64,000 nt of DNA from Prorocentrum cordatum (GCA_963575745.1 CAUYUJ010000045.1:1-64000), one strand, 5' to 3'; positions 9,263 to 32,174 are shown, numbered from the stretch's first letter. Translations and numbers: made by a program. The notes: generated by a model not told the origin, from the sequence alone.

Positions 9263-9353
9263 GGCCAGTCTCATGTTCAAAGTACACGACATTCGCTTAC
9301 GACATTTCGGGGCAACCCAGATGTCAGACCTGCTCCGGTGATTGAGCGAGATA

Positions 9354-9666
9354 GGTAAATCTGCTCCTCTCCGCCTCATCTTGCACTTGCCTCTCTTGCT
9401 GCCTTCCTTGCCACGCCCTGACACTGCGGCTTTGTACCGCAGCTGTTTGTACTTACAGGGTAGAAAAGGAGCGCGCCTGCCCTCGGCCGCCGCGCGTCGT
9501 CGGTCGTCGGCCGGCCGGCCTCCTCCCTTCCCACTCCTCAGTACAATTGCTTGACGGCGACTTTTAGTTTCATCGATGTCTCATCCCGTGTCCTCTACTA
9601 CTGAGCAGAGTCAACCCAAGATTTTACTACCTTTGTCATCTTACCCCGATTCTCAGAGGAAAGACT
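9354..9666 (+). repeat. 5' LTR
   Basis: Ungapped alignment to 31865-32172 at offset 22510, with 26 mismatches in 308 nt by hand count. A 2-nt indel lies just before the terminal ACT. Confidence 0.92.
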
Positions 9667-9680
9667 GGTTATCAGCCGAA
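9667..9680 (+). promoter_or_regulatory. Putative primer-binding site (GGTTATCAGCCGAA)
   Basis: Immediately follows the 5' LTR and is absent after the 3' LTR. Resembles half-tRNA PBSs (GGTTATG...) of copia/Ty5-type elements. Confidence 0.6.
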
Positions 9681-9990
9681 ACCCGCGACCAAGTCGCAAC
9701 AGGGATGAGCTATGATGAGACAGCCGAATTGCCCGTCAGAGCCGAGCTCGCATCACAAGTTGTACAACATGACGGGCAATAATCACAGGACGGCGGCCCG
9801 GGGAAGGGCCGCCCTCCCTCTTCTTCTATCGCCACTCGGGTCTCTCGTGGGAGGAGGAGGGGAAAAAGTTACAGATTTGTCCAGAGACGATTCCCCTTCT
9901 CGGATTCCGATCGGCGATCGTGAACAAACTCCAGACCCGACGAGGCGGGACGGCACAACAGCAAAGATATGATGAGGAGCATTCTCGTCG

Positions 9991-12900
9991 TTGATTGCCG
10001 TATCTTCGGACACGGTAAACTCCAGCCCGATTGCTACGCGGACTATTGTGCCGGCCGCTGGCCAAGCCAGTGGGTCGGGAGAAGCTGAAGGGCCCAGAGG
10101 CGTGTGCCCCACCGTCCCAGACGGATGGGGAAACGCACAAGGGACTCACCCCATCCCGATAGCCCTAAACGGACAGACCGGCCAAGACAGCGACGAACAG
10201 TTTGACGATGGAAACGATATTAACTGCGTGGAGGAAGACATTGAGTATGCCAATTATCAAGCGTCGCTTGGCCGAGATTTGTCTTCGATAATGGACGCAG
10301 AGCACCCCGTCCAAGTTGAGAGATGGCCCCCTGGGCAGGATACAATTGATTACCATCAAGTGGAAGCCCTCGGGGAAGCGTTTGCAATGCCAGATTCGGA
10401 CATTGAGATATGTGACCTGACGCCCCAGGCGGTCGAGGTGGAAATGGAATGTCAGACTCGAGCGAAGCATGACCGGGAGATCACAGGACGAACTCCCGCT
10501 CCTCAACTCAAGAAGCAGAAGGATGAGGATTATGACTTGAATGATTCTCCGCTTCAGAAAGGGTTCCATCGAACTGCCGTCGCCGCAGGCGATTGGCAAC
10601 CATCGATGCCCGTTGCAGTTGAGGATGATGAAATGATCACCCCCCCGGCTTCGCTGGACGAGTTGCTTAGACAAGGCGAAAGGGATGAGGAGCTTCGAGA
10701 GGCGGCTAGACCGCCAGAGAGCACGCACACACGTCCCAGATCGAATGCTTCGAGCCGGGGAAGGCCCAAGATGCCCAGATCTGGAGCTCGATCCACTTCA
10801 AGGAGCAACAGCACGATATCCATGCGCGAGACATGCTGGAACAGGAGCCCCAACTGCCCGCCCCGGGCGGGGAACAGGTGCCCGGGGAAAGCCCGCGTGC
10901 CGAGTGGGGCATGTAGGCGCCCAGTATGTAGAAGTTGCTCTGACGTGTGCCCGAATTGTAGCAATCAGTGGTTGCGTGTAGGCTACGTGCCGACGGAAGA
11001 GCATAATTGCTCGTGCCTTCTCATCCAGGCGATGCAGAATCAGGCTAGATTTGTTGAGGCCAAAACCCAGCGGGAATTTCTGGCCCGCGAAGCCCAGAGG
11101 GCCGAGAAGGCCCGACTGGACCGAGAAGAAATGAATGCAGTCGTTGAGGACGTTCGGAAGACGTTCGAGGCTGAGAGGCCCGCAATGGCCCAGGCGGTCA
11201 GAGAGCGGGAACAAGAACTGGTGGAACAGATGCCCCATCAAACCGCGGCTGCCAAGCAGCGCGCGGAAGAAGAAGCCGAGAACATATATGCTGAGATGAT
11301 CGCCTCCGAACGACAGGCCGTTATGACGGCGAACAGTCAGTCTGTTGATGCCGAGACTACATCCGCCGCCGTTGCGGCGGCGAGAAAAGAAGGAGAGAGG
11401 ATTGCCACAGCCAGGGCAGCACAAGAAAGACAGGAGCTCCAAGAACAACTTCAAACTGCCAGGCTGGAAGTGGCCAACGCCCAGATTGTAGCTGCGACGA
11501 TAGTTGATCAGAAAAATCAATATCGAGAAGAGCTTAAATTACATGAGAATGCCAGAGCATCTCTGCAGCGTGTGCAATTGAGCGACAGTGCGCGCCCACC
11601 GGCCAAGCCGGCTGGGGCGAGTAGACGGCCATCGCCGGCGGCCCAGCCGTCCGGCGAGATGCCCATGCCGCAGCCGCAGCCCGCAGAATGGGGCGACGAA
11701 GAGGGTTGCTCGATTTGCTTCAATCCGATAGTAGGAGATTGCGCCACCTGTGGATTGCCGGGCTGTAAAGATCACTTCGACGCGAGCGCCAAAGGGCGTT
11801 CTGCATGCACTCAAAAGAAGAGCTTGCCGGCAGAACAGGAGAAGTGGGACGAGCAGTGGCAAAAACGCAGTGATGGCCATGACTTTCGGGCTCAACAGCA
11901 GAAGCTTCTCGACGAATGTAGCGCTGACAAACTTCATGTTCAGCGAAGGAAGGAGCAAGCTGAGGAGCAGATTAGACTGAGCTCAGAAGGGTCAGCTGCC
12001 GACATCCGGGAGAAGGATGAGGCCCTGGCACGCGCAGTTGCATCAGAGAGAGAAGTGGTGAAGCTCAAAGCTATCATCACAAAGCCTTTTCCATATGGTG
12101 AGAAGGGGCAGGGAAAATTGCCCAACTTCAGTTCATTTGACATGCCTTTGCTTTCACAAGAAACGCCCGTGAGGCCTGTTATGCGACCCAACTTTATTAT
12201 TCCTGGCCCTGCAATCGAATGTCCGGCCAAGCCGAGTACCTCCGATAATGGTTTACCAATCAATATGAATTTCACAGGTACCAATGACGACATGGCTTTT
12301 GTCGATTATCATCCGTCCTCCAAGGATGGACCTGCGAGACCGCCAGCGGCCAAGCCGTCTGGCGGAAACAAAGACCATGCGCCAGCGGCAACGCCGTCGG
12401 GCGGGGCAGGACAGGATAAAGATGGAGATCACAGTAGTGTCGCACCAAGTGCAGATATTTTGTCGGCACTTACTGATGCCATCCGCGACCGGCCAGAGAA
12501 GCCGCCGCCGGGGAGTCCGGGGGGACCTGGATCCCCAGGCGGTGGAGGCGGTCGCGGCGGACCTCAGGGCCCAGGAGGGTCACGTGACCCGGGAGGCCTT
12601 GATGAGAGTACTCCGTTGGGCCAGTGGAGACATGTTGGAACCAATCAGAAAGTCGATCTGATGGACATTCCCGATGTTACAAACATACGGGAGTGGCAGA
12701 TGCATGCAGCCCGCGCGATTGCTGGATCATCTCCTGAGATTCAAGCAGCACCGCGTTGGATCACGGAAGCTATGGACCCTGCAGTGGATGAGGAACAGCT
12801 AAAAAAACAGGTCGCTTCAACGTCTTGGCATCATGATCGCCACGCATTTGATTGAGAAGTTCACCAACATGCGTAGGAATCGCGGTCTGTCCAATCATCA

Positions 12901-13942
12901 CATACACTTCCTTCAACAGATTAGTCGAATGGAGTACGGTGCCCAGAATGAGGAGAGGCTCTTGACGGGACGTGAGATGGTACGAGCCATTTGCTACTGG
13001 TGTTCTGTTAGATCGGAGTTAAGTCAACATCGCATTTCGCGTGATATCTTCAAGGGAGTCGTTGACTCAAATAAGCCAGATGCTGACTTATATCATTCTT
13101 ATAATGGATGGACAGACGTTTACCAACAGCTCTACGGCGTCCGACCTCCATCTGATGAGATGAGAGCTTCGATCCAGGCGCACTTCATCGAGCAACGCAG
13201 GAAGCCTAAGAAGTTAGACTTCGTGCGCCAACTTTACGACTTGTCCAGAGACAATTTAGGAGAAGGCGTAAGGTCTTACGAATGGCTCATGACTCAGATT
13301 GAAGGGATGATGTTGCGTGACGAAGAACGGAACATCAGCATGCATGAGAGTGTTCTGAACCAACGTGCCCGACGGGCGCGACTGGGCGGAGGTGGAGGCC
13401 ATGGCTATGACAATCGTCGAAATGCCAACGGCAAAGCCGCTCCGGCAGAAGTGGCAGCGCGTCTCGGGAAACCCACGGATGTGATGAAGAGTGGTTTGAC
13501 GAAGGGCGAGACGACGTGCAAGTCTGTGCGCAAGGACCAGACCTGCCCGAATGCATGTCAGGGATGCCCATTTAATCATAAGAAGCCAAAGGCCGCCGCA
13601 CCGGCCCAGCCGATCTTCCTCGCTCGGTGGATGAGGCGACGCCCGCGTCGGTCAAACCGAGAGCGGGGGGGAAGGAAGGTGTCCGCTGGCCAAGTCAGCT
13701 TGGGCGCCATTGCGCGCCCCGCCCGGTTAGCTCGGGGCCTTCCTGGGCAGAAGCAGGCCGGCCCTCATTTTTCAAAGGCCTTTATAAATTCTAGCGGAGG
13801 AGTTGACAGGAACCCCTCCGGTGGAGAGTTTCACCGCGAATGCGGGGAGCAAGTTGAGAATATTGTAAACATCCTCGCAAATTTCCTGCATCCTCTTGCT
13901 CGGGACGCTATCAAGATGTACTGGAGCGACCCCCCCAAGTAA
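9991..13942 (+). pseudogene. Extended gag-like region (Cys-rich fingers, coiled coil, Pro/Gly tracts, CCCH finger), frameshifted near 12.8 kb
   Basis: ORFs 9991-12855 and 12833-13942. Motifs CSIC..CATC..CKDH and CKSVRKDQTCPNACQGCPFNH. Positioned between the PBS and the protease. Confidence 0.7.
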
Positions 13943-14057
13943 AAGCTGCATTCGATCTCAGATGAAGGGTCGGCGCATGTTCCGCGCCCGATTTCGCCCC
14001 TCGACTGAGGAGCCCGCCACCACTTGCAGGAAGGCGCATCGCCGCGACCTGAAATAG

Positions 14058-14888
14058 TTGCCCTCAAGTGACAAAGACAGGTGGAAGTTCCCAGGGGAAA
14101 TGCGCCTACAGATGTCTACTCAGTCGAGAGCATCTGCTGCGGAGGCCCTGATCAGGGCGTCAGACCTCCAAGATGACGTCTGGCACCTTTGGTTGAGGGC
14201 TGAGGAAGGGGAAGAGGGCCCACACGGCACAGCCGCTGCGGGATGCACAGATAAGGATGGTGCGTATCTTGGAGCGCTGAGCTTTATTATTGATACAGGG
14301 TGTGGGTATAACCGCATAGCGGAAAAGTCTATTAAAAGTGCAGGTGCAATGATATTGATTCGAAAGTTTCCGCAATCGATCACTCTGAATACTGCCGGGG
14401 GAGAGTCACGAGCCCTCGGTTCCGTTCGCATAGCATGCCTTAAATTTAAGGGTGGTAGTTTTAACGCTTTAGTCATGCCGGAGACCCCGTGCGTGATCTC
14501 GGTAGGAGAGCGGTGCATGGATCGCGGCTTTAGTTTCTTCTGGCCAGCAGGCCAAAGACCCTACCTATTGTTGCCCAACGGTCAAAGAGTGGACCTGATC
14601 GTTGAGGGCAAGATTTCATACCTGACCCTTTCAGGCAAATTAGAGGCGCTGGGTCAGTGGATGCGTGAGGTTGCCGCTGGGGAGAGTGAACCTCCCGAGC
14701 GGTGGTGTTGCGTGACGCCAGGCGCTAAGGCATTTCTGGGCAGTGTGGAATCAGCGGGAGGCCCTCCGCCCCATGCTGTTCAGACTCGCGTGACCATAGA
14801 CCTGCATACACATGAGTTGATTGGCAACCACAGCTACGTTGACGGACGGCCGACTGAGCTCGCGCCCGTTTTTTTCCGTCCTCCTTAG
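14058..14888 (+). pseudogene. Retroviral-type aspartic protease
   Basis: FIIDTGCGY (DTG at 14292), flap-like LNTAGG, and ISVG. Confidence 0.85.
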
Positions 14889-14995
14889 ACTCTGCGGATA
14901 CCATCACTTATTTTTACGATTCGCCTCGCAAGGCTAGCGAAAGCGGTTGGAATCGGACACCGACCGGCATCGCGGCCTCCAAATGTTTTTCGATT

Positions 14996-16090
14996 TTGCC
15001 TTGCCACGGCCAAGCCGTTGGTCAGACCGACGAGCAGCCCAGCAAGGCCGTGGCCTGCGCAGCCGCATATAAGAACTCTTGTTGGCACGGGGTCTCAGGA
15101 TATCTCCCCTATGACATGGATCAAGGGTTGGACTCCGATGCGCGCGACGCGGCCCCCGGGCCCGAGGAGGGTGACATCGGAGACGCTGACGGTGCCGACT
15201 TAGTCGTCGTCGACGCACCGCCAGAACTCCACCCAGATGATGCAGAGGTTGAGGTGTCGGGTTCCCTTGCCGAGCGGCTCAAAAAGGCAGCAGCCCCCCT
15301 GCCGCATCTTCTAACTCATACTCCCAAGAACCCATGTTGTTCAGTATGCAATTGGGCCAAAACTATCAGAAGACAGCAGCGCAAAGCGCGCAACAAAGGG
15401 CTAAAGGTTCCCCGCCCATACGCTAACCCCACTTCGTTTGGGCACCTGGCGACGATGGACCATTGGTTTGCGATGGATGAACTCTCGCGGGGGCTCCATG
15501 ATGAGACCGCGCGCGTGATTTTTCGCGACCGAGCAACGGATTTCCTCGCCGCTCAGGGTGTACACGACAAGTCTGCGGCTCATGTTTGCAGCTTTTTAGT
15601 AAACCTCAAAGCCCCAGGAGAGAAGTTAGAGCATTGTTCTACCGATGGTGCACGTGAGCTTGCAAGGGCACGTTACGAGCTCAATATTGCACATGATCCT
15701 ACCATCCCAGGAAATAAGAAACAAAACGCTGTCGCCGAACGTGCGAACGGCGTGGTACAGATGGGGACCCGAGCGCTGCTCATGCAGGCGGGTCTCCCAC
15801 CACCATACTGGACGTATGCCGTTCGATACTTTTGTCTTTGCTACAATGCCAGGGCCCCTGAAGAGGGGAAGTCCAGTTGGGAACGTCGCTTCGGACACAT
15901 GTTTGAGGCTCCGCTTCTTCCCTGCGGGTCTCTCGTGCGCTATGCACCCCCGCCAGAGTCAAGATTCAGAACAACCAAGACTGGCGTCGCAATGATCCCT
16001 GGGATATACTTGGGATGCGTGCACAAAGCGGGGGGGCATGGTTGGTCCAGGAAGTTGCGTTATGCCGTTGAGACAACTGGGCGGACTTAA
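14996..16090 (+). pseudogene. Integrase (HHCC + rve core)
   Basis: HLLTH..KNPCCSVC; MDHW; STDGAREL; NAVAERANGVV..GTRALLMQAGLP..YW.YA; PGIYLG. Confidence 0.9.
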
Positions 16091-17550
16091 CATGGAATCT
16101 GGGCGCACGCCCGAGGGCAAACGACCCACCATAGAGAAGTCTGATCAGGTATACAGCAACATCTTGGACGGCACTGCGGAATATCAATCTCCTCAGTTTC
16201 CTTTGAGAAAAGCGTACGGGCAGGCAATGACTGAGGTGCGTTCCGTCACGATCCCTCCCGCAGGAGAGGCCGCGGCCGTCCCAGACTGTCCGCGGCAGTT
16301 GACGGGAGTGCGATCGGACAATCTATGTGGCGCAGATGAGCCTGCCATTCTCATGCCACCGCCTCCTCAAGAAGGCGAGGGCGCTCCACCACGAGACTCC
16401 GAGGCCGATTCCGATGATGATGACGGCCCGGGGGGCTTTATGCGTGGATGACGAGCCTGTGGTGATTGATGGCCGGGACCCACAGCGAGACTCTCACCCA
16501 GACGAAGATAATGACAAGATGTTAGGTCTCGCACATATTGTGTATCGTTTGGATCGACAATCGAACTTCTCAGCGGCCAAGCCGCGTGAGAAGGTCCCAG
16601 GGAAAGGGCGGCTCCTTGCCCGTGCGACCCAGAACCTTGATACGATAGAATACTTTGAGGACGGGCGTATCGTCGTTGGTCTGACGAGAGAAGAGTTGAC
16701 ACAAAAGCTCCCGTTAACAGGCCGTCGCAAGACGTGCAGTATACGTGTTGTACTTTACTATGTTCCCGCGACCCGTGCGTGGGTCGCAGATCCAGATCCT
16801 AAATACGGAGCTCAATGGTTGAAGAAATTGCCTGAATCCACCAACCCTGGAGTTCATCCTGGACGCTGGTTCAACATGAATCAAGCCCAACGTCGGCAGG
16901 CCGTCGAGCAATACAGGGCCGAAAAGAGAGGTTTCTTTGATATAGACGATCCTGGCCCTTGTCTTGGCCTCCTGCGTGACATAGGCTTGGACGTGGATGA
17001 CCCGCCAACTCCGTCCGAGCCCGCAGTGGCCCAGCCACCTGCCGTCCGTCCAATCTCTGAGGAGACCGAGGCCTACATTGCGAAACATCCTAAGGCAAGA
17101 AGAGCCGCACCGTGGGTTGCTGAGCGGTTTCGTCGTCTGGCGGCGCAGGGCGGCCAAGCCGCAGCTGTAGCTGCCGAGTCCTCTGAGGAGGATGATTCCG
17201 ACGAATATGTTTCGGGTGATGAGGATGTTTGGTGGAAGCAAACATGGTGCGGTGGTGCCGTAGCACGTGGCGGCGTTCCTTCCGGCCCAGCCGGCAGGGA
17301 CCCGTTATCCGATTATGAATCTGGGGCGACGCTAGAGGCAAGTTTGACCTTGAGTCCGGCGGCCGCCGCGTCGCGGCGAAGCGTGCCTCGGATGCCGTTG
17401 CCGAGGAGTTCGGCTCCAATGCCTAGTCACCGCGAGAAGGAGAAATTTGATATGGATTACTTATACAACCCTTTTACTGATCTCATCTCAGTTGTCGACG
17501 AGCCCTTCCAACTTCGCAGTGATTGGCAACGTGCTAAGATTGATGCCGCA

Positions 17551-18230
17551 GTAGCTCGCTGTGTTTCCAGAGATGAGGCCAAGGCTAACCAAGATGCCCA
17601 GGCCGCCCTCAGAAAGGAATGGAACATATTTCGAGACATAGGCACATGGAATGAGAGAGGGGTTAGGAAATATTTCGATGTTGTTGCGGAACTCAATGGA
17701 AAGACCGCACACTTTGGTCGTCTATTCGCAATTCTTGTCGGGAAAAACTCATAGTTGCCACTCGGACACAAAGATCGGAAATACAGTGGTCGGGTAGTTT
17801 TCGACGGTTCGAGCGAGAGATCAGAATAAGGATGTTGCTTTATTTCAAGAACATTCCAGCAGTCCTGCTACAATGCAGGCCAGCAAAGCAGCTGACACTT
17901 ACGGGCTTTTCGAAGGCCGTAGTATTGAACCAGCCGGCGCACGTCAGGCTTACACTCAGTCAAAGTTGGGTGGCATTCCAACGTGGGTATTCCTACCCCG
18001 CGATGAGTGGCCCAAAGAATGGTCGCGCATGCGCAATCCCGTATGCCCGTTGTTTCTATCTTTATACGGACACCCTGATTCGGGAGGATATCGGGAGCAA
18101 CGCTGCGAAGGGCATGTTACGGCTAAAGGATTTGTGAAATGTAGTCCGTGGCGTAGCTGCTATTTTCATAAGGAGTTGAAGCTGTTTTTGATAATTTACG
18201 TTGACGATTTTAAGCTGCCCGAAGGGTCTA
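17551..18230 (+). pseudogene. Copia-type reverse transcriptase (RVT_2-like), interrupted
   Basis: ALRKEW..GTW; AYTQSKL; LSLYGHPDSGG; IYVDDFKL (YVDD at 18197-18208). Internal stops and frameshifts. Confidence 0.92.
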
Positions 18231-18759
18231 GGAATAGACCCTGCGACCGCGGTCGGACGATATTTGGGCTGTGCACACAGACTGTCCACGCAGTTTGTTG
18301 AATGGCAAGGTGAGTTACCCACGGTTTTGGACCCGCCGCCTCCCAAAGTCAAGAAGAATGCCTCCGTCCCGGACGAGAGTAGCGAGGAGGAAACGGGGGG
18401 GGGCTCGGCGGCCCAGCCGCCCGAGCCATACCAACCGAGAGAACCCAAACAGGCCAGAGTCATAGAATACGACATGACTGACTTATTCGAGTCTTGTGCC
18501 ACTTTATATGCACAACTCACGGATACTGACCCAGCTACTTATCCCGCTGCGGGTACCCCGTTTGGACCCGAACTTGTTGACCTTGAAGACGGTCGAGGCG
18601 GCCCTAGAGGTGAAATTTGCTCTCCTGCAGAGGAAGCAATCGCCTCCGCGTTACATATCAAAATTGACGTTGGCCCCCCAGATCAAGAAATTGTGGTTCA
18701 CGGCTTTGACGCCGCAGCGGCCAGCCCCAATGGCCCGGGGCCACCGACCCAGTCGGGAG

Positions 18760-19440
18760 TGCTCCAGCCCATAGCGGCGAAAGCCTTGGTGAAGATCCTT
18801 GACGGTGCAAGGATGGCTCGATATGACTTGCTCCGTGCCGTGTGCCACACGGCCAGTTGCATTACTAAATGGACAGAGCAACAAGACATGGATCTTTCCC
18901 GCCTCATCTGTTACATCAAGTGTACTTCTCACGACCGTATGTCTTCATGGGTAGGTGATCGAATGGAGGATGTCTTGTCGAAGCAATACTCTGACGCGGA
19001 CCTGGCCAGTGACATCCGAACACATAGGAGCACAAGTGCCAGTTATCAAGCAATTTGGGGCCCATGCACCAGAGCTGGGCAGTCTATGGGATCTCAACGA
19101 CAGACGTGCGTTTCCCATAGTACTCTAGAGGCAGAAGTTGTGGCTGCTGACCGTGCCCTGCGAAAAGAGCTGCTTGCAGCCCTTCCGCTTTTGGAAATAT
19201 TGCTTGGAAGAGAAATACGTTGTTTGTTTTTAGAGGACAACCAGGCGGCGTGTAAGGTCATCAAAGCTGGATGGCCCATGAAGCTCATGCATCTACCGCG
19301 AGACCATCGCATTGATGCTGCAGCTGTGTCCGAACAATGTTCTCGAGGTATCGCTGGACTTCAGTACGAAAGGACTCAAGACGAAGCTGCCGACATTGGA
19401 ACGAAGAGGTTCGCATACCCTTTGGCTTGGGTTAAGGTAT
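18760..19440 (+). pseudogene. Copia-type RNase H
   Basis: ARMARYDLL; YSDADLASD..RSTS; SQRQTCVSHSTLEAE; EDNQAA; ADIGTK. Confidence 0.92.
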
Positions 19441-20049: not shown

Positions 20050-20340
20050 AGGAGGGATCAATGGACACAACGCGGACAGAGTCTTAAACGATGGCGCTTT
20101 GTTCCCAGACTTGTCACGTTTATACCAGCGAATACCGATTGCCGGGTTGACCCGGACTGATTAGATGATAGACGTCGTACCTATGCCATCAACGCCCAAC
20201 ATGGTTTGACTGTAGATCGTACGGATAATTGGCGCGACGAAGATAATAAATATCATCACCCCTTCGAACAGAATTCGAACGGTGATTCCACTGATGGCGA
20301 CTATCACCCAAGTAGATGGACCGGCTGGACGGAATTCGGG
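20050..20340 (+). other. Small Trp-rich module (DxW..R..PR..F.P...DNW...WTGWTEF) of unknown function
   Basis: Read through a single in-frame TGA at 20158-20160, joining ORFs 19651-20160 and 20206-20490. Confidence 0.45.
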
Positions 20341-20385
20341 ATCCGGGAGGAATGCGCCCCGGCCACCGAGTGGACCGGGGACCGA

Positions 20386-21020: not shown

Positions 21021-23314
21021 ATTGTTGTTGCTCGTGCCGCGGAGCGCGTGTTGTCGTCTCGTCGTCGTCCCATCTCATCCTCTGATTTCGTATGTGGCGC
21101 TGCCGTTTTGTCTCCAGAGCTTGCGCGGGCTGCCCAGCGGCCGGCCCCCCCTCGGACCGCGCGGCCGCCCTGTTTCGGCTGCGCGGGCCATGCCTGCCGC
21201 GGCCCCCGCGCGCCGGAGAGGTCATTGACCAAAGCCATGTGCCAACCGCTGGGAACCCCAGCGGCAAAGCCGTCGGGGGAGGACATGGCTTCGGTTTGCT
21301 CGGACGATATCATACACGAACTCGTTCCTGAGTCACCTGAGGACGGGGAACCTCAGGTTGAGCCCAAAGGAAAGGCTCCTTCCAATTCAAGTCGAAAGGC
21401 TACCCCACTGGCCCAGCCAAGTGGGGATGCCGCCCCGCCGGCCAAGCCGGCTGGGGAAGTGGCTGATCCTTTTAGTCCGAGCGATGTCGTGATGAATGAT
21501 GACATCGAAATGGAGGCTGGCGTAGAGATTCACGCAGAAGAGATCGCAGCTCGCATAAGAGCTGCTGACGCTGCCACCAACGACGACAAGAGGACAGCTA
21601 TCTCCTCGCAAGGGGATTGCAATTCCCGCGAGGAGAAATCCATCTTCCGTTGCTTTCCTGACAAGAGAGAATGGTCCAGGCCTAGTTATGCCGGGACTAT
21701 CAAGTTCGCACGCAAACGGGGATGGAGCCGGCGCTTCACGATGTGGAGAAACAACATATTATACAGACGGGGCGACCAAGTCGTCACCGCACATCCCAGA
21801 CGATCTTTGAGCGTCTGTTTTCCCAAGTCTCACAAGACCCGTGGACCGCCCATTGGACTACGACAGAATGGCAACGTGCCGTTTTGATTCTGCTCCCCCA
21901 GAACTTGACCAGATCCCAGTGGGTACTTTCTTTCAGTCGCATCTTGATGCGATGACGAAGCTGGTTTGCAGGTTGTATACAAACGCACCGGGGGAGACTC
22001 GACGCTCCGTCTGAACCCTCGAAAAGGGAGAGGTCGTGGGCCCCACTGTTGGCCCAGCCATTCGGCGAAAGACGATCTACGGAGACTTTGTGAGCGTCCC
22101 AGTAAGGGACACCAAGACAGAAGGTGCTCCCGACTTGTGGATGAACATCTGGGGCCCTTCACCACATATGCCTCCCCGTGGCAAAGCCATTGGGGGCGGT
22201 TGGAGCACGATTTTTGCCCTGCCTGTTATCAAAGGTCTGTCTTATACGCCAGTGCATGTTGTTGAGGAAGCTCTCGCCAAATCAGCCAGAGCAAATTAGT
22301 GTGAGTTTTCCCCATCAGCAGGCGGTGCATTGGCAGAAGGCTGCACCTCCGTGGACACGCCTATACGACTTTGATGCATGGCTCGCGAGGGATGGCCTTG
22401 ATGGCGATGCTGACTTGAACGATAAGCAGCCGCCTCAGCCAGACGCAGAGACTGAGGCCAACCAGCACGACCCAGTCGTTGCTGGAGAGAGGCCAGATCT
22501 GCTTGAAAATTCCGAACAGCAACGCCCTGAGGCGCCCTCGGAAGGCCCTCCTGGCCACAGAGAGGAGGGTCCTGACCGGGCGCCGAAAAGGCCACGCTTG
22601 GGAGCGGAGATGTCGACCGACCCAGTCGGTTCGCCAAGCAATCATGCGAACGTAGCCATCGCGCAGCCTTCGGCCGGATCCGGCCCACAAAAGCCATTGG
22701 ACAGTCCTGGTGCTGGTCGGCAGGCGGCCGGCGGAACATCCGCTGGGTCAGCCTCGAACCCGACTGCCCCGCCCGGCCAAGCCGGTGGCGGGGCGGGCGG
22801 AGGCTCTCCTCCCGGCCCAGCCAGTGGTGGAGGTGCTCCGTCTGGCCCAGGTGGCTCTCCCTCGGGAAGCGCCCCACCTTCCGGCAACCCCTCTGGGGGC
22901 GGCGGTGGAGATGGACCCCCAGATGCGGGGTCGACGATGGCGAGTGGCGAGGGTGATGGCCCGCCTTATTTTGGGCGGGGCCCCTGGAACGTCCTCGACT
23001 ATTATTGGGCAAAGGGAGAGTATGCTCCGAACCCCAGGCCGCCGACGAATGACTGGGAATCTACGGTGAATGATATTCTCAGGCTTCACGTGGACATCAC
23101 AGATCCCAAGTTGAAAAACTGGGCATTAAAGTTGTCGTTCCTTTAGAAGTGCCAGGCCATAACGCAGATTGCCCGACAGAACGGACACTCATGGATTCCA
23201 TTTGTTGGCGAGGACGTTGCGGCCATGATGGCCGCAGGCAAGTCTGTTAAGGACTTGTTCCGCCCTTTGTGCTTGGTGGATAATGGGACATGCAAGTTTT
23301 GGTCCTGTTACGTC

Positions 23315-23921
23315 CACATTGTCTCTGATTCAACGATCTCGTTTCGGAATGCGTCGAAGACAGTCACGCCCGGCCTTCTTCCTGAATACCATATGCGGGG
23401 TCACGTGCACGGCATTTCACAGAAGATCATGAGTGGATGCATGGCCCCTGGACTTCAGGAAGAGGCTAAGTGACTCACATGGGACGAGCATAAGTACTAC
23501 CAGAAAGGGATCCACACGCCGATGCGTTTCATCTTCTGGAACTTCAATGATATTGTTGATGGAACCGGCGAACTGAATGGAGTCGGCACAGGGGGAAAGC
23601 GGCAAGAAAATCCAACAATATCCGCTGGAAACCTCCGAATAATGGTAGAGGCGGCGGAGCGTCTGGTGGATGACGCGATCACCCGCGGAAAGGACGGAGC
23701 GATAGCGATCGTGTACGTTGGTGGGGGCCACGCATGCTGGCGGTCGGATGGATCCGGCGTAAGCCAGATGTGGGATGATGTTGCCACTCTCGTCAGGGCT
23801 CGAATGAACCGTCGGATTGAAAGCTACAAAGCTATGGCGATTTTTCCGCGAATAATGATTATTGACGGTGTGGGCCTTCACCGCAAACTGCGGCACCCGT
23901 CATGGGGATTTCTACCACTTT
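23315..23921 (+). pseudogene. SGNH/GDSL hydrolase-like domain
   Basis: Four blocks in order: HIVSDS (GDS-like), MSG, FWNFND (GxND-like), GDFYHF (DxxH). One in-frame TGA at 23471 and one frameshift. Confidence 0.55.
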
Positions 23922-25327
23922 TGTTCCGACCGCAGTGACTACAAGGTGGATGAGAACGGACGAGCGGCGAATGTGAAGGCGGCCCAGTTATGCGCTGAGC
24001 ACATGTTTAAGGCAGCCAAACTCGCCGCATTGTTCTTCTGCCAACCCTCCGGCGGCCCAGCCGTTCAGTGGGATGGGAGAACAAAGGCGAAAAGAGCCGA
24101 TGGGTATAAATTGCAAGACGCTACCATTGATGAGCTAGTCATGTACTTGCAAGACTGGAGCCCCACTGAAGGCAATGTGCCCAAGTCCGTGCTCAATACT
24201 CGCCCGTTCGAAGTAGCCTTGAACCCCGTGGAGTTCCCAGCCGTCCAAGACGGGTCTGGGGGCGGGGCGATCCATTCTTATTATTCCGATGCATTCATTG
24301 AATTTTTGAAGCGAGGGAATGCATATACAGGCTTTTTCCCGAGGCAAGATGATCATTACTTCATGTCGCGAAGTCGGATCTTTAGTCCGGGAATGCCCCC
24401 AAGAGGGAAACGCCTTCGACTGTCAACTGAAGGAGTGCAAAATGATGAACACATGCGCACGGCAGTTGATGAGTTTAAAAAGGCAGCACCTGCTACGGCA
24501 CCGAGCGGCCAAGCTGCCTCGGGCGAAGTTACTGCGCCGAGCGGCCCAGCCGCCTCGGGAGACGTTGCTGCGCCGAGCAGCCCAGCCCCCTCGGGTTGCG
24601 TTGCTGCCACGCGGGCGGCCCAGCCACCCCGCGGACCCGTTCTGGCCCCTGCAAAGGGCGTGCAGGATGTTAAGACACCTGGCGAAGCCGCGGAGGAAGC
24701 TCTCCGCATCAAATGCCCTGTCGGTCAGGCAACCACGCTCAGCCAAAAGTATAAGTTGCCAAAGCGCTTGAGAGTAGGCGGCGATCCTGACCGCCCTCAA
24801 GATTGGGAACTAGATTGGCCTGTGCATCGGACATACCAGAAAATTATGAAGTTGCCCTACACAAAAGCGCGCCTGACAAGGATCTAGTCCTTCACGATTT
24901 CCTCCGACCATTCACTGTGGCGAGCGGTGAGCTCTACAGACGCATGATGCCTACGAACGATTACCCGGGGGAAGAAGGCCGCGTTGAACGAGTGGCGCAA
25001 GGGGATAACCTGGCCCGCAGCAAGCAAGTCAATCTGATTCAGAGACACGCTAATGGAGAGGCGTGGCTGGGCTTTCAGATGCTGCAGAGGTCCACGAAGA
25101 CCCCAGTTTTGGAACCTAGTCATGTGGTTCCAAATTGGGCACGTTTCTTTGTGATTAAAGCCGATCGATCGTGTGCGGACCCCAAGGCTACCGTTGCTGA
25201 TCGCCTGAATTGGGCGAAGTTGTCAACGAAGGCCCACAGGACGGGCATCGATCACTGCGTTCAGCTGACTTTGCCATTCTATGTAACGGACGAAAAGCCT
25301 GTGGAGGTCCAAGACCCATCCACAGGC

Positions 25328-25640
25328 TGGGCCAGACAGTCCCACGGTACGCCTGTGACCGCCCTCCATTCTATTTTTGGAGGGCCATCAGCTGCTTACA
25401 TCCAACCCCCAATACGGAGGGATTACCAAACAGAACAAGGTTGGTGTATATTCATTTCCATGCACCAACAGTCCTGCCACGCATGCGACATATTCTGTCG
25501 CAGAGGAAACCTTTGGAGTCGGCATCTGGGCAACTGCGGAGATCTTTTTCTTCTCAAAGCCCCCAATCATCATGGGAAAACCAGATCAGTGCGTTTGCGA
25601 ACCATCTGAGATGGTATTGTATGAGCTTCGCCTCTACCAT
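25328..25640 (+). pseudogene. ADP-ribosyltransferase (PARP/H-Y-type)-like domain
   Basis: SHGT (25340-25351)..LHSI, a frameshift, then GVYSF (25443)..HATY..DQCV..VLYELRL. Confidence 0.55.
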
Positions 25641-28078
25641 TGGACTCCTGCGGCACTTCATTTCGCGCCAGCTTATGCCTACTTGCAACATGTCGCCAGA
25701 CAGAATAATTGGCCTGTGGAGCAAGACTTCGGGGTCGAACGGCATCGCGACAAAGCAAGGGAGGCTGCCACGGACCAAGTCCAGGAGGCACAGAGACAGT
25801 GGGTCCCAGATTTGGCACCCATTGATTGGCAGAAGGATCGAAGCCCTTATTTTGAGAACAACAGTAACTTCGACGATATTTGGCCATGGTTCCAGAAGAA
25901 AGGAGTCAGGCCCACAAAGATCCACCCGTTGCACAAAGACGAGGCTTCGGATGTATCGAAGGCGCTCGCCCAGGCTAACAAGGACAGAGACGAGGAGGCC
26001 AAAGCCAAGTCGTCGACGAGTGCACAGCAGCAGGCGCCGGCGGCAAAGCCGTCCGGCGCATCCTTTTCGCTTGGTACAGAGGACTTCCCACCTTTGGGAC
26101 AGCCTGCGGTGCGCGCTGGGAGAGCGCCCAAGTCTCCGCTCGGCAAAGCCGTGGCGGAGGCGTGGCCCCCACTTCCCAAAGTTGATGCACTTGCGAAAAC
26201 GCTTATGCCTCCACCCCCTCTGAGGGAGGGGCCATCACCAGTTGGATCAGCAAGCGAGGTGCCTAAGAAACCTCCGCCGCCCAATGCGATGGCGCCGCCG
26301 CCTGCTGCGAAGCCGAACGTCGCGCCGAGGAAGGACTCACCTTCACTAGAGAAGACGGACGCTGCGCCGAAGAAGCCTCCGCCCCCACCTCATTCGAGTC
26401 CAGAGGCACGTGCGCCGAAGCCCCCGCCAGCTAAAGTGGCGCGCCTCGGTACTGGAGCTGACGATCTTCCTGCATTCAAAGTTGCACAGCCACCGGCCAA
26501 GCCGGGGGTCTCGGGGACAGCGGAAGGCCCGCCCAAGCCTTGGGCACCGAGCCTTCGCGATCCCGACCCTATTGTCAGGCTCGACAGGTGGAATTTTGAT
26601 CGTTCGTCGCAAGCTGACCAAAATCTTCAGAAAGCTGGGGCCACGCCCAAGGCGGCGCCTCAGTGGTGCCGAGATCCGGGATCTTCCCAGCCTGCCCAGG
26701 GCAGTGCTGGGATGGACCAGACTGCAAAGGCGGAGAGCTCTGCCGCAAAGGCAGCGGCAGTTGAGACAGAAGTCAGAACTGCCGAGGATGTGAGCTCTGA
26801 TCGCCACGGAGGCAGTGAGAGGCCAGAGTTTCCTGCGGAATCTATTCCGAAGCAGACGGATGGAGATTCCTCGTCAGAGGAGTCACCTCAGCCGCGGGGG
26901 GCCGACGCTGCAACCGTCATTCTCAGATCTCTCCGAGAAATCTCCAAGACGCACTTCACGGGCAGGCAAGCACGTGGAGCACTGAGGAAAGAGAATGATT
27001 TCTTTTACCAGTGGTGTCGTACTGTTGCTGACCGGCCGCAAGAGGCCGAATATCCCGATGATTTGTTGGACATTGAAGAGTTTGTTGGCACAGCAGAGAG
27101 GATCTACGAGAAGGCTAAGATAAAGGGGGAAACATGAGCCGGGAAAATATTCGGAACCATGGAAGAAGTTCGCAAACGTCGTTGTTGAACACATCCGTCT
27201 GGTCGCGCCAGATATTGTTCCTACTCCAGTGATCGCCGCCAAGAGCAACAAACGTTCAAAGCCTCTCGCTGAGGGCGGATCTTTTGCGAGTGGAAGCAAA
27301 CTTCCTCCCCCCCCTGCTCCTCCGCCCGGCCCGGCCGCGACGGCGAGCTTACCTGCGCCCCCGCCTGGCCCGGCCAGAGCGGAGGCCGAACAGGCGAAGG
27401 GAGACAATGATGGTAGACTCGGGCGCTGATGCTGGATCACGCGCTGCGCCTCCAGAGGTTGCCGCGTCTTCCCCTGCCAAGCCACGTTCTACCGACGAGG
27501 AGGATGCGCCCGTTGCAAAGGCGCCGCCGCCAGTTGCCGCTCCAAGTGGACATCGCGCAGCGGAGCCTCCCTCCGTGGATCGAACCCCGGGTGTCCAAGA
27601 CACTCCGGGGTCCCTTGAGGCCAGTCCAGATCTTACCCAAATCAGTGGCTTCCCGTATGAATCGGGCCCTGAGCTCATTCCCATCGAGGAAGAGCATTAC
27701 CGATCTGGCCCAGCCTCTGCCAACTTCTGCAGAGAGCGGTTGCCACCTGCCCCTGACAAGCGGCAGCGTCAGCCCACGGACGATCCGCCCCAAGAGGACG
27801 ATCAGGAGATTAATGTCGGGCACGCTGACCACTTTAGGGGCAGAGAGCTGTATATTTCGCCGGACGAACGCATTCGAGTTATTCAGCGCGCGCCCCCTGA
27901 TCTAAGGCAGAGGGCGCGAGAGGCCCACATGATTGGTCCTGTCCCCCCGCGGGGAGAGGCCATTCGCAATCAGTCGAATAGTGCGCTCAGATGCATAGCA
28001 GAATTCGTTCAAGATCCCATACTTGTATTATTGAGCGAACTTCCCATAGACGAGGGCACCTTCGATTTGGCGCGATAA
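25641..28078 (+). pseudogene. Long Pro/Ala/Lys-rich low-complexity cargo ORFs
   Basis: ORFs 25377-27137, 27229-27429 and 27284-28078 are all on the element's sense strand. Confidence 0.55.
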
Positions 28079-28270
28079 TTTCTCAGTGCTGAGTTTTACT
28101 CCGACGATATTCCCGACGGATTTGATCCCCAGTCTTTCAAGTTTTTGAAACCATTGGTTGTTGGGGTCGATGATAGCAATAATCCGGCTGCCCTAGGCAG
28201 TGCGGATTTTAGGAGACCCCAAAGTTACCGAGTAGACGAGTTTGCCCAGCGCGTCGGCGACTGCGCAACG

Positions 28271-29064
28271 CATCTCGCGAGGCATTGTTCTGATGACGCG
28301 AAGTCCCTCGGGGGGCTGGGTCTACTTTGGAGGCCTGGTTGAGAAGATGACCGCGGACGGATTTGAATATCAGACATATGCACCTGCTGCGCACGGCCTA
28401 GCCGCGTTGCAGCAGGGAGCTGTGGAGGTCTTCGGTGTGCTTCCTGACGACAGTGCCAGCATCAGTGAGACGTCCGTTTACATGATGTGGCGCAACTACA
28501 AAGCATGGCCCTCTCAAGAGGCGGAGCGGACTACCTCTCCCATTCCTGTTTTCTATCGAGCGTGCCGCATTCCAACATTCCACTTTTGTTGCTTCAATTG
28601 AGAGAATGCACGTGCCCTATGACCCTGGCCTAGCCAGGTGTCATGGGCCCCTTCTCCAAAACACTGATATGGAGACTCTGTTGGAATCCGCGGTCGGAAA
28701 AGTGCAGTTCCCGAAGAGAGTCTCGGGGCTTTGCTTCGAGGCGTACTACGAATTGCTGAGGCTTCTCCTGACCAAGACGGATCCAAGTATGCAAGGCCAA
28801 GATCATCTTCCTTCGTGGCTAAGCCAGCGGAGGTATGGCGACCCTGCTCCTGCGAGGAAGCACATGGCCATGGGTAATAGCCCACAGCCAGGAGAGCCAC
28901 CATCAATCGGAGCATGGCCCGCAGGGGACACAGTCCTTCTGTGGGACCAGCTGCCGACTCACAGAGAGTCCTGGCCATTAATTCTTGTTTTCGATGGCCG
29001 TGTGCTCACTCGTTTTTCGTACCGGATCTGCCAGGACGGGACTCTTGTGTCCCGTGAAGTGCCG
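28271..29064 (+). pseudogene. Tpt1/KptA (RNA 2'-phosphotransferase)-like domain, divergent
   Basis: HLARH, GGWVY, FYRA followed by a frameshifted HS (cf. IRAxQGHS), ARKH (cf. RxHIH), PLILVFDG..QDGTLVSREVP. The HGT position reads QNT. Confidence 0.4.
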
Positions 29065-31616
29065 AGGTTCATTGATATCGACAAAGCCGCCACCCTTGTC
29101 AAAGTCAGCGACTGGTATGATCACAAAGAAAAGAACATGTTTATGTCTAGGTCAATTGTCTTCAACCAAGAGTGGACGTCATACGAGGCAAATCTTGATA
29201 ACACCTCAATGCTCGTCTGGATTCATACTGACGAGACTTTGTCATTGATCCCAGATCATATACCTCCATTGCTTCCCGCGGCAGAAGCATTTGTTCAGTC
29301 TGTCCCCTGGGAGGACGATGGTCGGTTCCCTTGCGCTAACTTGCACTGGGTGCGAACTGACTTTGGTCATTGCCCCTCCTGCAACAATCCGATCAAGTAT
29401 AAATGCAAGGTTGCCCACGATTATTTGCTGCAGTCGTACCGACATAAGGTCATTCCAACTTCGCTTGAGAAAACATGCATGTTGTTGCATGTTATCGATC
29501 CCGATCAGCTCCCTTACGAGCGTGATCTTTACGTTGGAGCGCGAGTAAACAGACAACGGAGAGCTTCGGCAGATGTAATATACAACACCAGCAACAATCT
29601 GCAGCAGGAGCGCAAGTGGACAACAAATAATCAGTACAATCGCTTGGATGCTTCGGGTCACTCCTTTGGAAACAGCCGCGCGGGTATTGTTCCTGCCTGG
29701 ATTCCTGACCGCGCCGCGGCCCAGCCGCCGGCGCGTCACCGCCCTTTCTTTCAATACCTCGAGCCTGTGAAGAGGCGATTCATTAAGCGGCTCGCACACT
29801 TGGCTCAGAGAGAAGCGACTCCAGCCCCAACGATCGCAGAGTGCTGGCCCACTTTGGGCCACAGAAATTGACCAGTATGCGCGTTCCATGTATTGCCCTG
29901 CTCTGGATGCCTTTGACTGGCCAGAGGAACCTGACACACGCTTTGAACCAATCGAAGGTTGGTTCCAATGGGAGCGCAACGTGGCTAAGGCGAACATCTT
30001 CGTGCCAACGTTTCGGACATTGCGCAATGCAAAAGATGGAACAGCACCCTGGCTGCCCATTGACCAGGGCAACGCCATGGACGTCGCGGGGCCCAGCCTA
30101 CGTGGACGTCCACCGGTTGCTTGGGAAAATATTTTCGTGGCACGTCTTCGTCGTGCTTCCCAGTCCGTCAGTAGGCGTGACAGAATGTGTTCCGAACACC
30201 CTCTCGTTTCAGTGTGCGCGCATGCCAAACCTGCCGCCGGTCCAACCGTGACGGCAGGTCAGGAGAATTTACACATGACCCTTGATTTCACTGCAGTCTG
30301 CGGGTCCCAGACCGAGCAGATAATTGGCGGGAAAATCAATCTTGATCAGCCCAATGGGTACGTGCATTCCCATCGCGACGACAAATCGTTGAACGTCGCC
30401 GTGACCGAGGATGGAGCCAAAGAAGTGGCCGCTCAATATGTCATGGAGCACACCAGCTATCGCCCGGAGGCAAATGACCCTGAACTATTACGACTATCGG
30501 GTGAAGTAACGCACGAAGCCCCAGAACATGTGCGGAGCACCATTGATTGGAACTCGAAGGTCCCTGTTCCAGCGCTGGAGTTGGGCCTTCACATTATTCG
30601 TGTGATTGTGATTGTTCGCGAGATCATTAGTTGCTTCGTCGCAGAGGGACATTGCATTGCATACCTTGGGGCTCACTTTCTTGCCCAAGGCACCGGAGTA
30701 TATTACAATGATGACAAGCGTCGAAAGGATGCATGCGCCCTTGATTGCCGCATTCGTGTGGCGATTGAGACAGACGACCTCATTGAGGAATGGGCCCGTA
30801 ATTTGGGTAAACAGGCTCGTAGCGATATCCGCTGTCATGGCATGAAGTTACAAAAAGCTATTTATTGGCTATACCCACATGTGGAAGCCACTGGGCTTCA
30901 AGACAAAGATGAAGGCCACTTTCGCGGTGCCCGCGGCAAGTTTGGTATTATTGTTGCCACTGCCGCAAGGGACACTATTAGATTCGCCAGAAAGCGAGCG
31001 ACTACTATTCGTGAGAGAGGAGGCGCCGATGGGCCCCCCGACGGCCAAGCCGATGCGGAGGAGCCCGCCTTGGCGAAAGCGAGGCCCAGACCGCCGCCTC
31101 CTCCGCGCAGACCCGACGTCCAAGACGATCGGACTAACGATGAAGTCACGGAATATCCGTGCTCTGCTGGCGGTCAAACCGCTGCGGCAGGATATGAGTA
31201 TTCATGATATTCGTCTGACAGGGACACGCGGAATTGGTCGAGGCCTACGCGCGCGCGGCGGAGCCATGGATGTCGGGCGCGGTGCTGCTGGCTACGACCC
31301 CTCGAAGCACTGCCCGCGCTACGCCAATGATGCGCCGGATGGATACTGGGCTCACCGGGGCGTGATGTCCTGGATGGGCCCGAGGGGGGGCAAGTCTCGA
31401 GCGTGGCATGTTGCGTGCCTGAACGACTACAACTACTACTTTCCGAGGAAAGGAAAGGACTCCAAGAACAAGAACAAGCGCAACAGGCCAGCGCCTTACG
31501 CTGGCCGCGGCAAGGGATTCAGATCCCGCTCGCCCCATTGGGCCGCAGGTCAGACGGGGGGCTCGTCATCTTCACATCCGAGACCTCCGTCTCCGCCATC
31601 GCGGGGATATCTTTAG
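29065..31616 (+). pseudogene. Unknown cargo ORFs up to the 3' LTR (CxxC motif; basic C-terminus)
   Basis: ORFs 28606-29871, 29888-31207 and 30879-31616 on the sense strand, ending ~240 bp before the PPT. Confidence 0.55.
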
Positions 31617-31855
31617 CACGAGATCTGAGGGAAGGCCGAGCCCGCGCGACCAAGTCGCTGCGGGCCCAACCGATCGACAAAGTCGTACCGGCAGAGAGAA
31701 TGTATTCAACTATTGGTGGGAATCGTCGGGTTTCTTCGGCCCTCAGCTCCCTGGCAGCCACCGTCGAGCGGTAAAAGTTTTTGCGGTTCGCTCCGGTGGT
31801 TGTATATATGCACAGGCCAGGGAGCTGTGGCTGGATGGGCCCTGCGAAACCCACC

Positions 31856-31864
31856 GCGGGGGGA
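31856..31864 (+). promoter_or_regulatory. Polypurine tract (GCGGGGGGA)
   Basis: Directly abuts the 3' LTR and is absent before the 5' LTR. Confidence 0.75.
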
Positions 31865-32174
31865 GTAAATATGCTTCTCTCCGCCTCATCTTACATTTGC
31901 CTCTCTTGCTGCCTTCCTTGCCACGCCCTGTCACTGCGGCGTTGTGCCGCAGCTGTTTGTGCTTGCAGGGTAGAAAAGGAGCGCGCCTGCCTTCGGCCGC
32001 CGCGTGTCGTCGGTCGTCGGCCGGCCGGCCTCCTCCCTTCCCACTCCTGAGTACAATTGCTTAACGGTTACTTGTAGTTTCATCGATGTCTCATCCCGTA
32101 TCCTCCACTACTGAGCAGAGTCAGCACGAGACCTTAATTCCTTTGTCATCTTGCCCCGATTCTCAGAGGAAACT
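31864..32174 (+). repeat. 3' LTR (AGT...ACT termini)
   Basis: Direct repeat of 9354-9666. Confidence 0.92.

Follow-up and report, generated by a model that had tools for sequence, protein, structure and literature searches.

A probable giant copia-type retrotransposon in Prorocentrum cordatum and a conserved additional domain in the Pol polyproteins of its relatives

Retrotransposons of the Ty1/copia type (Pseudoviridae) are regarded as compact elements of 5–10 kb that are conservative in content. Here we describe an element of this type on the + strand of a 64,000-nucleotide stretch of the Prorocentrum cordatum assembly (GCA_963575745.1, CAUYUJ010000045.1:1-64000, referred to below as the window); lying within positions 9354–32174, it is two to four times the usual length and has up to 12 kb after the RNase H domain. 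Additional domains are on record for other retroelement groups. In the available portions of de Mendoza et al. (2018; PMC5890265), DNA methyltransferases (DNMTs) are carried by LINE, DIRS and Gypsy elements (SymbioLINE-Dnmt and SymbioDIRS-Dnmt3 of Symbiodinium, and KnitGypsy-Dnmt3 of Klebsormidium), and the Copia superfamily of Symbiodinium is said there to be one that ‘lacks any DNMT domain’. The accessory domains named in the available text of Morozov et al. (2019; PMC6338049) are the chromodomain, a DnaQ-like exonuclease, a superfamily 1 (SF1) helicase and DNA methylases, and that text contains 0 occurrences of ‘phosphotransferase’ and of ‘ADP-ribos’. Captured extra open reading frames (ORFs) or domains occur in long terminal repeat (LTR) elements of bdelloid rotifers (PMC5408684), and an AlkB-type m6A demethylase domain occurs in Ty3/gypsy elements of orchids (PMC9289625). 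Common to these elements and the one described here is the fixation of non-canonical domains in retroelement polyproteins; within the available portions of the three sources (PMC5408684, PMC9289625 and PMC6338049), none is a copia element with ~12 kb of cargo.

The window very probably contains a single copy, old and no longer active, of a giant LTR retrotransposon of Ty1/copia type, 22.8 kb in length, a confidence that applies to its structure and not to the functions of its products. With good confidence its layout can be given as LTR, primer-binding site (PBS), oversized gag-like region with a CCCH finger, protease (PR), integrase (IN), reverse transcriptase (RT), RNase H (RH), an additional domain referred to here as the PC domain, ~10.5 kb of further coding sequence, polypurine tract (PPT) and LTR. 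The copy is dead, with many frameshifts and stops. An initial annotation of the window had proposed one very large copia-type element bounded by matched LTRs about 22.5 kb apart, and both proposals are borne out, the second by a direct repeat at 9355–9654 and 31865–32164 (91% identity, spacing 22,510 nt) and the first by this repeat together with the PBS, the PPT and a colinear core. By blastn the repeat extends to 9355–9670 and 31865–32180 (90.8% identity over 316 nt), giving an LTR length of 312–316 nt. The 5′ LTR is placed at 9355–9666, its exact ends being uncertain by a few bases and its 3′ boundary being fixed by the conserved PBS after it, and the 3′ LTR at 31865–32176. The PBS-like sequence (9667–9682, GGTTATCAGCCGAAAC, preceded by a T) presumably resembles the tRNA-iMet PBS of plant copia elements. 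Abutting the 3′ LTR is a polypurine-tract-like G run, GCGGGGGGGA, at 31855–31864. Coordinates of motifs, here and below, were counted by hand from translations and may be a few bases off.

A related element with both LTRs is found on L022, one of 30 metagenome loci (L numbers) that contain the PC domain. Its LTRs (1212–1334 and 15912–16034) are 99% identical and delimit a clean insertion of 14.8 kb with TG..CA ends, the 5-bp target-site duplication (TSD) GCTTG on both sides, a G-run PPT (GGCGGGGGG) and GGTTATCAGCCGTAAC directly after the 5′ LTR. The PBS core is that of the window element, with GGTTATCAGCCG[A/T]AAC following the 5′ LTR in both, and both have a G run before the 3′ LTR; apart from this, reading the two LTR regions unaligned revealed no likeness at the nucleotide level. 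The window element would replicate in the manner of other copia elements: reverse transcription would be tRNA-primed at the conserved PBS, plus-strand synthesis would be primed at the G-run PPT, and integration would make a 5-bp duplication, as in L022. Its coding sequence would yield one or a few giant polyproteins, whose accessory modules would enter the virus-like particle and there target the RNA or cDNA of the element itself. Shared with Ty1/copia elements are thus the direct LTRs, the PBS after the 5′ LTR, the PPT before the 3′ LTR and the order PR-IN-RT-RNase H, to which the relatives add an RVT_2-type RT and, in L022, the 5-bp TSD and TG..CA ends.

The copia core called in the initial annotation stands on the order of its motifs, which were read in the window translations and which we take to be copia-typical, and on colinear tblastn matches of window ORFs to L005, L018, L019, L021 and L022. 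The closest relative is L005, colinear from the gag-like region to the PC domain. The aspartic protease (14058–14885, DTG at ~14292–14300) is 51% identical to that of L005 (E 1e-74); its sole relevant Pfam row at E ≤ 10 is a weak gag-asp_proteas match, below the cut-off (E 0.013). The integrase (14858–16448) contains an HHCC motif of the form H-x3-H..C-x2-C (~15305–15349) and the D, D and E residues (~15458, 15644 and 15737), is interrupted by a 1-nt frameshift near 16030, and is 47% identical to its counterpart in L005 (tblastn E 6e-89). The reverse transcriptase (17533–18374) lies in three frames in the window copy; it contains YVDD (~18197–18208) and a readable LYGHPDSG, is 70% identical to that of L005 (E 1e-63) and has matches in 14 further loci. 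The C-terminal part of the RT with RNase H (18417–19520) is 64% identical to L005 (E 8e-134), and the canonical copia pol end is reached at ~19.4 kb, with the presumed copia-typical ADxxTK-type end motif at ~19389–19406. The only RT family found in the RTs of the relatives, which are 33–70% identical to the window RT, is RVT_2 (PF07727), above its cut-off of 31.6 bits in L009 (E 9e-15, 55.3 bits) and L007 (32.8 bits) and below it in seven others (L005, L008, L010, L018, L021, L022 and L029); the RT pieces of the window, whose core is too diverged for Pfam, do not match this family at E ≤ 10. Between IN and RT is a partly conserved spacer (16449–17532), for which no family was found and of which 16543–16986 is 48% identical to L005 (E 2e-38).

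Upstream of the protease is an oversized gag-like region (9976–13939; ORFs 9976–12852 and 12803–13939) that ends in a CCCH-type zinc-finger-like motif. It differs from that of Ty1/copia elements in its length of ~1,300 amino acids and in having CCCH rather than CCHC fingers. The stretch 12815–13579 matches ORF1 of L005 with 29% identity (E 5e-24 by tblastn and 1e-27 by phmmer). The finger of the window copy is a reading by eye, and at the same place CCCH fingers are Pfam-significant in L008, L018, L021 and L022. In L005 the gag-like ORF (2–3361) and the pol ORF (3365–11995) are in the same frame with a single stop codon between them (3362–3364), which could be a site of stop-codon read-through or one mutation.

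The extra conserved domain in Pol, a further difference from Ty1/copia elements, occupies 20383–21050 in the window, where it runs through four successive frames, the last shift being at 20925, and has its Pro-Cys dipeptide at 20570–20575. A search with 20501–20932 returned 51 proteins at E ≤ 1e-3, 48 of which carry the label Pyramimonas sp. in EukProt. Across a 30-sequence alignment (A10) the domain comprises ~220 residues, with near-invariant PCTGG..W, EWP..C.YW and GC..GL blocks and with KKPW, C.G...H.H and E.YT as other common blocks. A smaller alignment of the domain (A8, 20.5–20.9 kb) led to the 30 metagenome loci, at 25–55% identity.

By tblastn of all window ORFs, the PC domain lies on the same strand as a copia-like core in 18 of these loci; in the other 12, mostly short contigs, it was found alone. 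Its place varies: it follows RNase H in 14 of the 18 (L005, L006, L011, L013, L015, L017–L023, L028 and L029) and precedes the RT in four, visibly between IN and RT in L008 and L010, the others being L007 and L009. In five elements it is encoded in the same ORF as pol (L005, 3365–11995, 2,877 amino acids and open at the contig end; L008, 3244–10665, 2,474; L018, 31–9354, 3,108; L010, 920–6760, 1,947; L021, 1383–6215, 1,611). The annotated idea of a giant polyprotein combining extra domains therefore holds for its first module, the PC domain, which is fused to pol in one ORF of intact relatives; the enzyme names given to the modules are not confirmed. The Pol polyproteins of the clade exceed 3,000 amino acids.

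Identity between the window and L005 is 52% over the PC domain. The estimate of cargo dN/dS that had been suggested could be made for this domain and gave values between 0.06 and 0.14 in three pairs of relatives: 0.115 for L003 and L005 (183 codons), 0.137 for L017 and L019 (231 codons) and 0.063 for L004 and L005, where dS is saturated. Values of 0.46, obtained for RT-RNase H of L017 against L019 and for the PC domain of L017 against L029, were set aside, one partner containing a frameshift or stop. The PC domain is thus a conserved Pol module under purifying selection in a widespread clade, represented by 30 metagenome contigs (18 with a copia-like core) and by the Pyramimonas-labelled data set, and the window family is seemingly common in marine algae. 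A domain that has no Pfam or PDB relative appears to have moved within Pol during evolution, and the clade offers a new protein family, intact templates (L005, L008 and L018) and a case of coding expansion in LTR retrotransposons. Nearly the same element is present in L017, L019, L028 and L029, contigs from different records, with 19 differences over ~693 nucleotide sites between the PC domains of L017 and L019; this likeness points to recent activity of the family in the community from which they were sampled.

What the PC domain does is addressed by comparison with the DNMTs, the initial annotation having named it as one. DNMTs have a glycine-rich loop for S-adenosylmethionine (SAM) as motif I (FxGxG), ENV as motif VI, QxRxR as motif VIII, and a motif X. 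The Pro-Cys dipeptide of DNMT motif IV is present, PCTGG being nearly invariant in the 30 sequences. Among named Atlas clusters PF00145 comes closest, with a score of 0.87 and 164 features in common, which is a lead only, and the best local hhalign match between A10 and Escherichia coli Dcm, which is not significant, sets this dipeptide on FPCQ of Dcm. A series of results weighs against a methyltransferase function. PF00145 was found in 0 of 48 PC-domain siblings at E ≤ 1, nor was any other relevant Pfam family, and no window ORF matched it at E ≤ 10; the PC-containing ORFs of the relatives have no relevant family at E ≤ 0.01–0.1; profile searches of the PDB with the PC alignments, A10 included, gave 0 matches at E ≤ 10; and the hhalign comparisons of A10 with Dcm (E 0.13), RsmB (E 0.33) and TesA (E 0.4) are not significant. 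In A10 the glycine-rich SAM loop is not conserved, a motif-I-like stretch E[FL]C[CT]. being present without conserved glycines; of ENV, a counterpart is seen only in the Glu of EWP; the position expected for QxRxR is taken by KKPW; and there is no GNxVP-like end. The window copy itself has a Gly (20744–20746) in place of a near-invariant Glu. The DNMT assignment is accordingly not confirmed: the Pro-Cys motif, one Glu and the order of the blocks fit, whereas neither Pfam nor the PDB gave a match and no hhalign comparison was significant. The AlphaFold model of the homologue P0103 (pLDDT 57.5) consists of alternating strands and helices, and Foldseek with this model returned nothing at E ≤ 1e-3 in the PDB or BFVD, the fold search being non-specific; the domain is thus predicted to be of α/β type, without a match to a known family.

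The strongest rival to an enzymatic reading is that neither the PC domain nor the other cargo modifies nucleic acids, the former being a cysteine hydrolase or protease that binds Zn, or else a module with a role in structure or assembly, and most of the cargo being disordered linker or particle-associated protein, much like the additional ORFs of other large LTR elements. The conserved Cys and His residues (C..YW, GC and C.G...H.H) suggest metal binding, the SAM-binding glycine loop is not conserved as noted, and much of 21–27.7 kb is proline- and alanine-rich low-complexity sequence. Set against this are the Atlas, in which the nearest named clusters all belong to the DNMT family or clan (again a lead only), the order and spacing of PC, E and GC..G..KKPW, which by our reading parallel DNMT motifs IV, VI and VIII, and the location of the best hhalign match at the PC motif. 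The balance is close to even, falling slightly short of it for this rival, and a hydrolase that binds Zn, or a role in structure alone, is for the PC domain at least as likely as a methyltransferase-like enzyme. That the domain modifies nucleic acids as an enzyme dependent on Cys and Glu, with a Rossmann-like α/β scaffold and a distant resemblance to cytosine-5 methyltransferases, is a tentative proposal that we consider rather unlikely. Doubtful is the farther-reaching idea that it represents a new, highly derived family of retroelement cytosine-5 (DNA or RNA) methyltransferase-like proteins which, with NAD+-dependent modules of Tpt1 type, would define an undescribed giant copia-like clade of marine algae and protists that marks or repairs its own RNA or cDNA in the particle.

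If the PC domain were a methyltransferase, the idea of self-methylating retrotransposons would extend to Copia, as the first case there. As far as the available text of PMC5890265 goes, the DNMT retrotransposons resemble the present elements in having an enzyme-like domain in the coding region, sometimes in Pol, at a lineage-dependent place and under purifying selection; they differ in hosts and in carrying a bona fide Pfam DNA_methylase domain with conserved catalytic residues, whereas the PC domain matches no family.

The SGNH and ART names proposed for the cargo found no support. The stretch annotated as an SGNH esterase (23147–24884) has no Pfam family at E ≤ 10, and phmmer against the PDB returned only antibody chains at E ≥ 0.07. 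Characteristic of SGNH proteins are GDS, GxND and DxxH in blocks I, III and V; SDS, NFND and DFYH can be read in the candidate stretch, without support. PDB searches with alignments A5 and A7 and with the 23.1–23.9 kb stretch gave nothing significant. For the ADP-ribosyltransferase (ART) named in the initial annotation, no window ORF matches a Pfam ART family. The suggestion of a virus-style counter-defence arsenal gained nothing usable from two scans of viral contigs and the BFVD fold search: viral contigs scanned with the alignment of the 29.7–31.3 kb segment (A4) gave no match, and a candidate from the A8 scan, the viral-contig locus L002, matched over 26 residues and was rejected when tblastn at E ≤ 1e-4 did not reproduce it.

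The Tpt1-like reading of the cargo survives in part, for the relatives and not for the window. The window segment concerned (27683–29043) lies in three successive frames with one in-frame stop and has ARH..GGW, RAC / QHS and CHGP motifs. A search with 28486–29868 found the protein P0003 (E 1e-47), which is colinear with 27848–29043 at 42–49% identity through the three window frames and the stop; P0054 and P0055 extend this homology to 27683, and P0003 and P0055 read across the window breaks at 28.3 and 28.55 kb. The window family resembles KptA in three blocks only, ARH..GGW, RAxQGHS and CHGP. Comparison of its alignment (A5) with KptA by hhalign aligned 16 columns around RAxQGHS at a probability of 1%, and comparisons of A5 with ORF1 of L008 and with A9 (probability ≤1%) were not significant. 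Pfam on P0003 at E ≤ 10 gave 0 families, a local hidden Markov model (HMM) built from four Tpt1-like sequences matched none of the window ORFs at E ≤ 10 and gave P0003 a score of 0.7 bits, the Atlas gave no usable match for residues 115–330 of P0003, and the structure model of this protein is unusable (pLDDT 38).

Four related elements, by contrast with the window, carry a Tpt1/KptA-like domain (PF01885). ORF1 of L008 matches with E 2.3e-7 (31.5 bits against a cut-off of 26) and shares 30% identity with E. coli KptA over 93 residues (KptA residues 5–93), including LRH and IRAxQGH. The pol ORF of L010 matches after RNase H (E 8e-5) and L024 after the PC domain (E 4e-4, covering 6–171 of the 177 model positions), both below the cut-off, and L022 is found after its PC domain by the local Tpt1 HMM (E 6e-7). 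Related elements thus repeatedly carry what, from these sequence matches, is predicted to be a Tpt1/KptA-like domain, with which the window family has the RAxQGHS block in common while not being significantly related; in the relatives, unlike in Tpt1/KptA, the domain is embedded in giant retroelement proteins. Its position differs, at 723–2909 in the 5′ ORF of L008 and downstream of pol or PC in L010 (6002–6407) and L024 (2706–3345), and because the Tpt1-like and PC domains change place between L008, L010 and L024, the accessory modules appear to be shuffled within the clade. In L022 an ORF near the 3′ end (14261–15292), after the Tpt1-like region, has a CCHC zinc knuckle (PF00098, E 1.4e-4, above the cut-off), unlike the gag-like region of the same element with its CCCH fingers.

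The catalytic tetrad of Tpt1 is Arg-His-Arg-Arg. In a shallow alignment, L008 has R-H, L010 R-H-R, L024 R-(G)-R-R and the window ARH and RAxQGHS only, so that by our reading none of the Tpt1-like domains of the relatives keeps all four residues, a point against function. Catalytic activity of these domains is possible rather than probable; if active, they would bind or process 2′-phosphate or 5′-phosphate RNA ends with NAD+. No report of a Tpt1/KptA domain in a retrotransposon was found in the literature searched, which covers few subscription journals.

Beyond RNase H, the initial annotation had described ~12 kb of near-continuous coding sequence on the same strand, which is confirmed for at least three stretches that have homologues (20.3–21.1, 27.7–29.0 and 29.7–31.3 kb). 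The third contains a segment (29662–31300) with an ALDCRIR..DDLIE.WA motif region and 50 homologue representatives, of no family: a search with 29771–31204 found these 50 at E ≤ 1e-3, 31 of them at E ≤ 1e-10, at 28–83% identity and mostly as short fragments, and P0034 and P0047 continue across the boundary between ORFs near 29.8 kb. Pfam gave no family in 51 members of this segment family, and a metagenome scan with A4 gave 295 pattern matches and no relative. The junction between RNase H and the PC domain (19521–20382) is variable, with sibling contigs skipping from 19432 to 19621, from 19655 to 19696 and from 19736 to 19800 and with a stop at 19776–19778; no homologues of it were found. The middle of the cargo (21051–27682) consists of long low-complexity, proline-rich stretches, large parts of 21–27.7 kb being rich in proline and alanine, and of ORFs without a family; diverged sibling contigs occur in all its bins, and there is no Pfam or PDB match and no relative in the 30 metagenome loci. 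Pfam at E ≤ 10 on 22 cargo and gag ORFs gave chance-level rows only. When 36 queries from the gag region, the cargo and the siblings were compared by phmmer with every ORF of the loci, the part of the cargo beyond 21.1 kb yielded just two rows, both at chance level (E 0.0017 and 0.013). Within the cargo, three tandem 36-nt units at 24494–24601 encode a repeated APSG.AASG.V peptide; sibling contigs skip several different lengths of 41–53 nt there, so that the number of units varies.

Contigs from a single DNA run (X1) were mapped to 12300–32250 of the window at a likeness of at least 80%. They total 12,358, of which 979 are at least 99% alike, 2,443 are 95–99%, 4,479 are 90–95% and 4,457 are below 90%, and they cover all 30 bins of this interval; in the genome of X1, core and cargo alike are therefore present in many diverged copies, and the proposal that the cargo is repeated with the family is confirmed. 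The family is highly multicopy, and sibling copies restore the reading frames at the break points of the window. Sibling indels at 14869 (−2), 16030 (−1), 17814 (+2), 20466 (+1), 20925 (+2) and 25374/25376 (−1) each join two adjacent window ORFs by frame arithmetic, the deletion of one base at 16030 in the integrase being found in many sibling contigs. Sibling proteins do likewise, P0077 and P0097 reading through 20466–20520, and P0071, P0079 and P0105 through 20925.

Several observations weigh against reading the 22.8 kb as one transposed unit of copia type. In the core, Pfam at E ≤ 0.01 found 0 families in the 28 + strand window ORFs, and the top PDB row by phmmer with the integrase ORF is a phage coat protein (E 0.0014), integrases following at E 0.57–1.3 (Ty1 integrase at 0.57). 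In the cargo, 21.1–31.6 kb has no relative in the 30 metagenome loci, L022, L018, L024 and L013 among them, which have 3.5–10 kb downstream of the PC domain; one sibling form skips from 21456 to 26035; and X1 is possibly the same sample as the source of the window assembly. At the borders there is no matching 4–6-mer outside the LTRs that could be a TSD, the LTRs differ by 9%, and the window copy may have originated as a recombinant of two family members.

An improbable rival is that a normal-sized copia-like element with the PC domain ends at ~21.1 kb and that 21.1–31.6 kb represents one or more unrelated insertions on the same strand, or host genes acquired by transduction, which then multiplied along with the subfamily of the window. 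To its credit are the missing relatives, the sibling form without 21456–26035, and P0034, which is merely 28% identical and lies on a 2-kb contig of unclear context and therefore could be a host gene. The stretch has, however, no internal LTRs, terminal inverted repeats or poly-A-type ends: blastn found no other repeat pair of at least 150 nt inside the element, and the cargo part (19300–31900) contains no inverted repeats and, as direct repeats, two short families only. The PPT sits after the cargo, directly before the 3′ LTR, and the whole stretch is multicopy, with diverged copies. Coding sequence after the PC domain also extends for 5.5 kb to the 3′ LTR in L022, with its intact TSD, and the Tpt1-like domain of L010 is in the same ORF as pol. 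An AAKPSG-type peptide motif, a pattern noticed post hoc, has eight occurrences on the + frames of the element, four each in gag region and cargo, and none on either strand in the rest of the window. Even a captured stretch would now be part of the transposing unit. The extra sequence is thus most likely part of the element and not a foreign insert, and the original view that what follows RNase H is a component of the element family rather than an unrelated nested insert is supported by its multicopy nature, by siblings that read through the frameshifts and by the lack of internal termini. The 10.5 kb after the PC domain seem to be either specific to the window lineage or too diverged for detection.

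A very improbable alternative, that the two LTRs come from different insertions (nested or tandem copies, or inter-element recombination) and the 22.8 kb is not one transposed unit, would account for the missing TSD and the LTR identity of only 91% in satellite-rich surroundings, where rearrangement is common, but each internal part is present once and in canonical order from PBS to PPT, no third LTR or LTR fragment lies inside, and at 9% divergence a 5-bp TSD would be expected to have decayed.

Downstream of the giant element is a second, unrelated retroelement remnant on the minus strand (40500–48000). The minus-strand ORFs of this region, including one of 756 amino acids (45653–47920), have no Pfam family, and the ORF 42241–42984(−) has a weak RVT_1 match (E 2e-4, below the cut-off). 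The DNA around the giant element is mostly satellite, the element lying among different tandem-repeat arrays (1–2945, 5756–7616, 8086–8952, 33048–33880, 35658–37211 and 62796–64000). An array of 20-nt units of the GGAGCACGGCAGAACACACA type stops ~400 nt before the 5′ LTR, and the array at 35.7–37.2 kb has a period of 90 nt with 96–97% identity.

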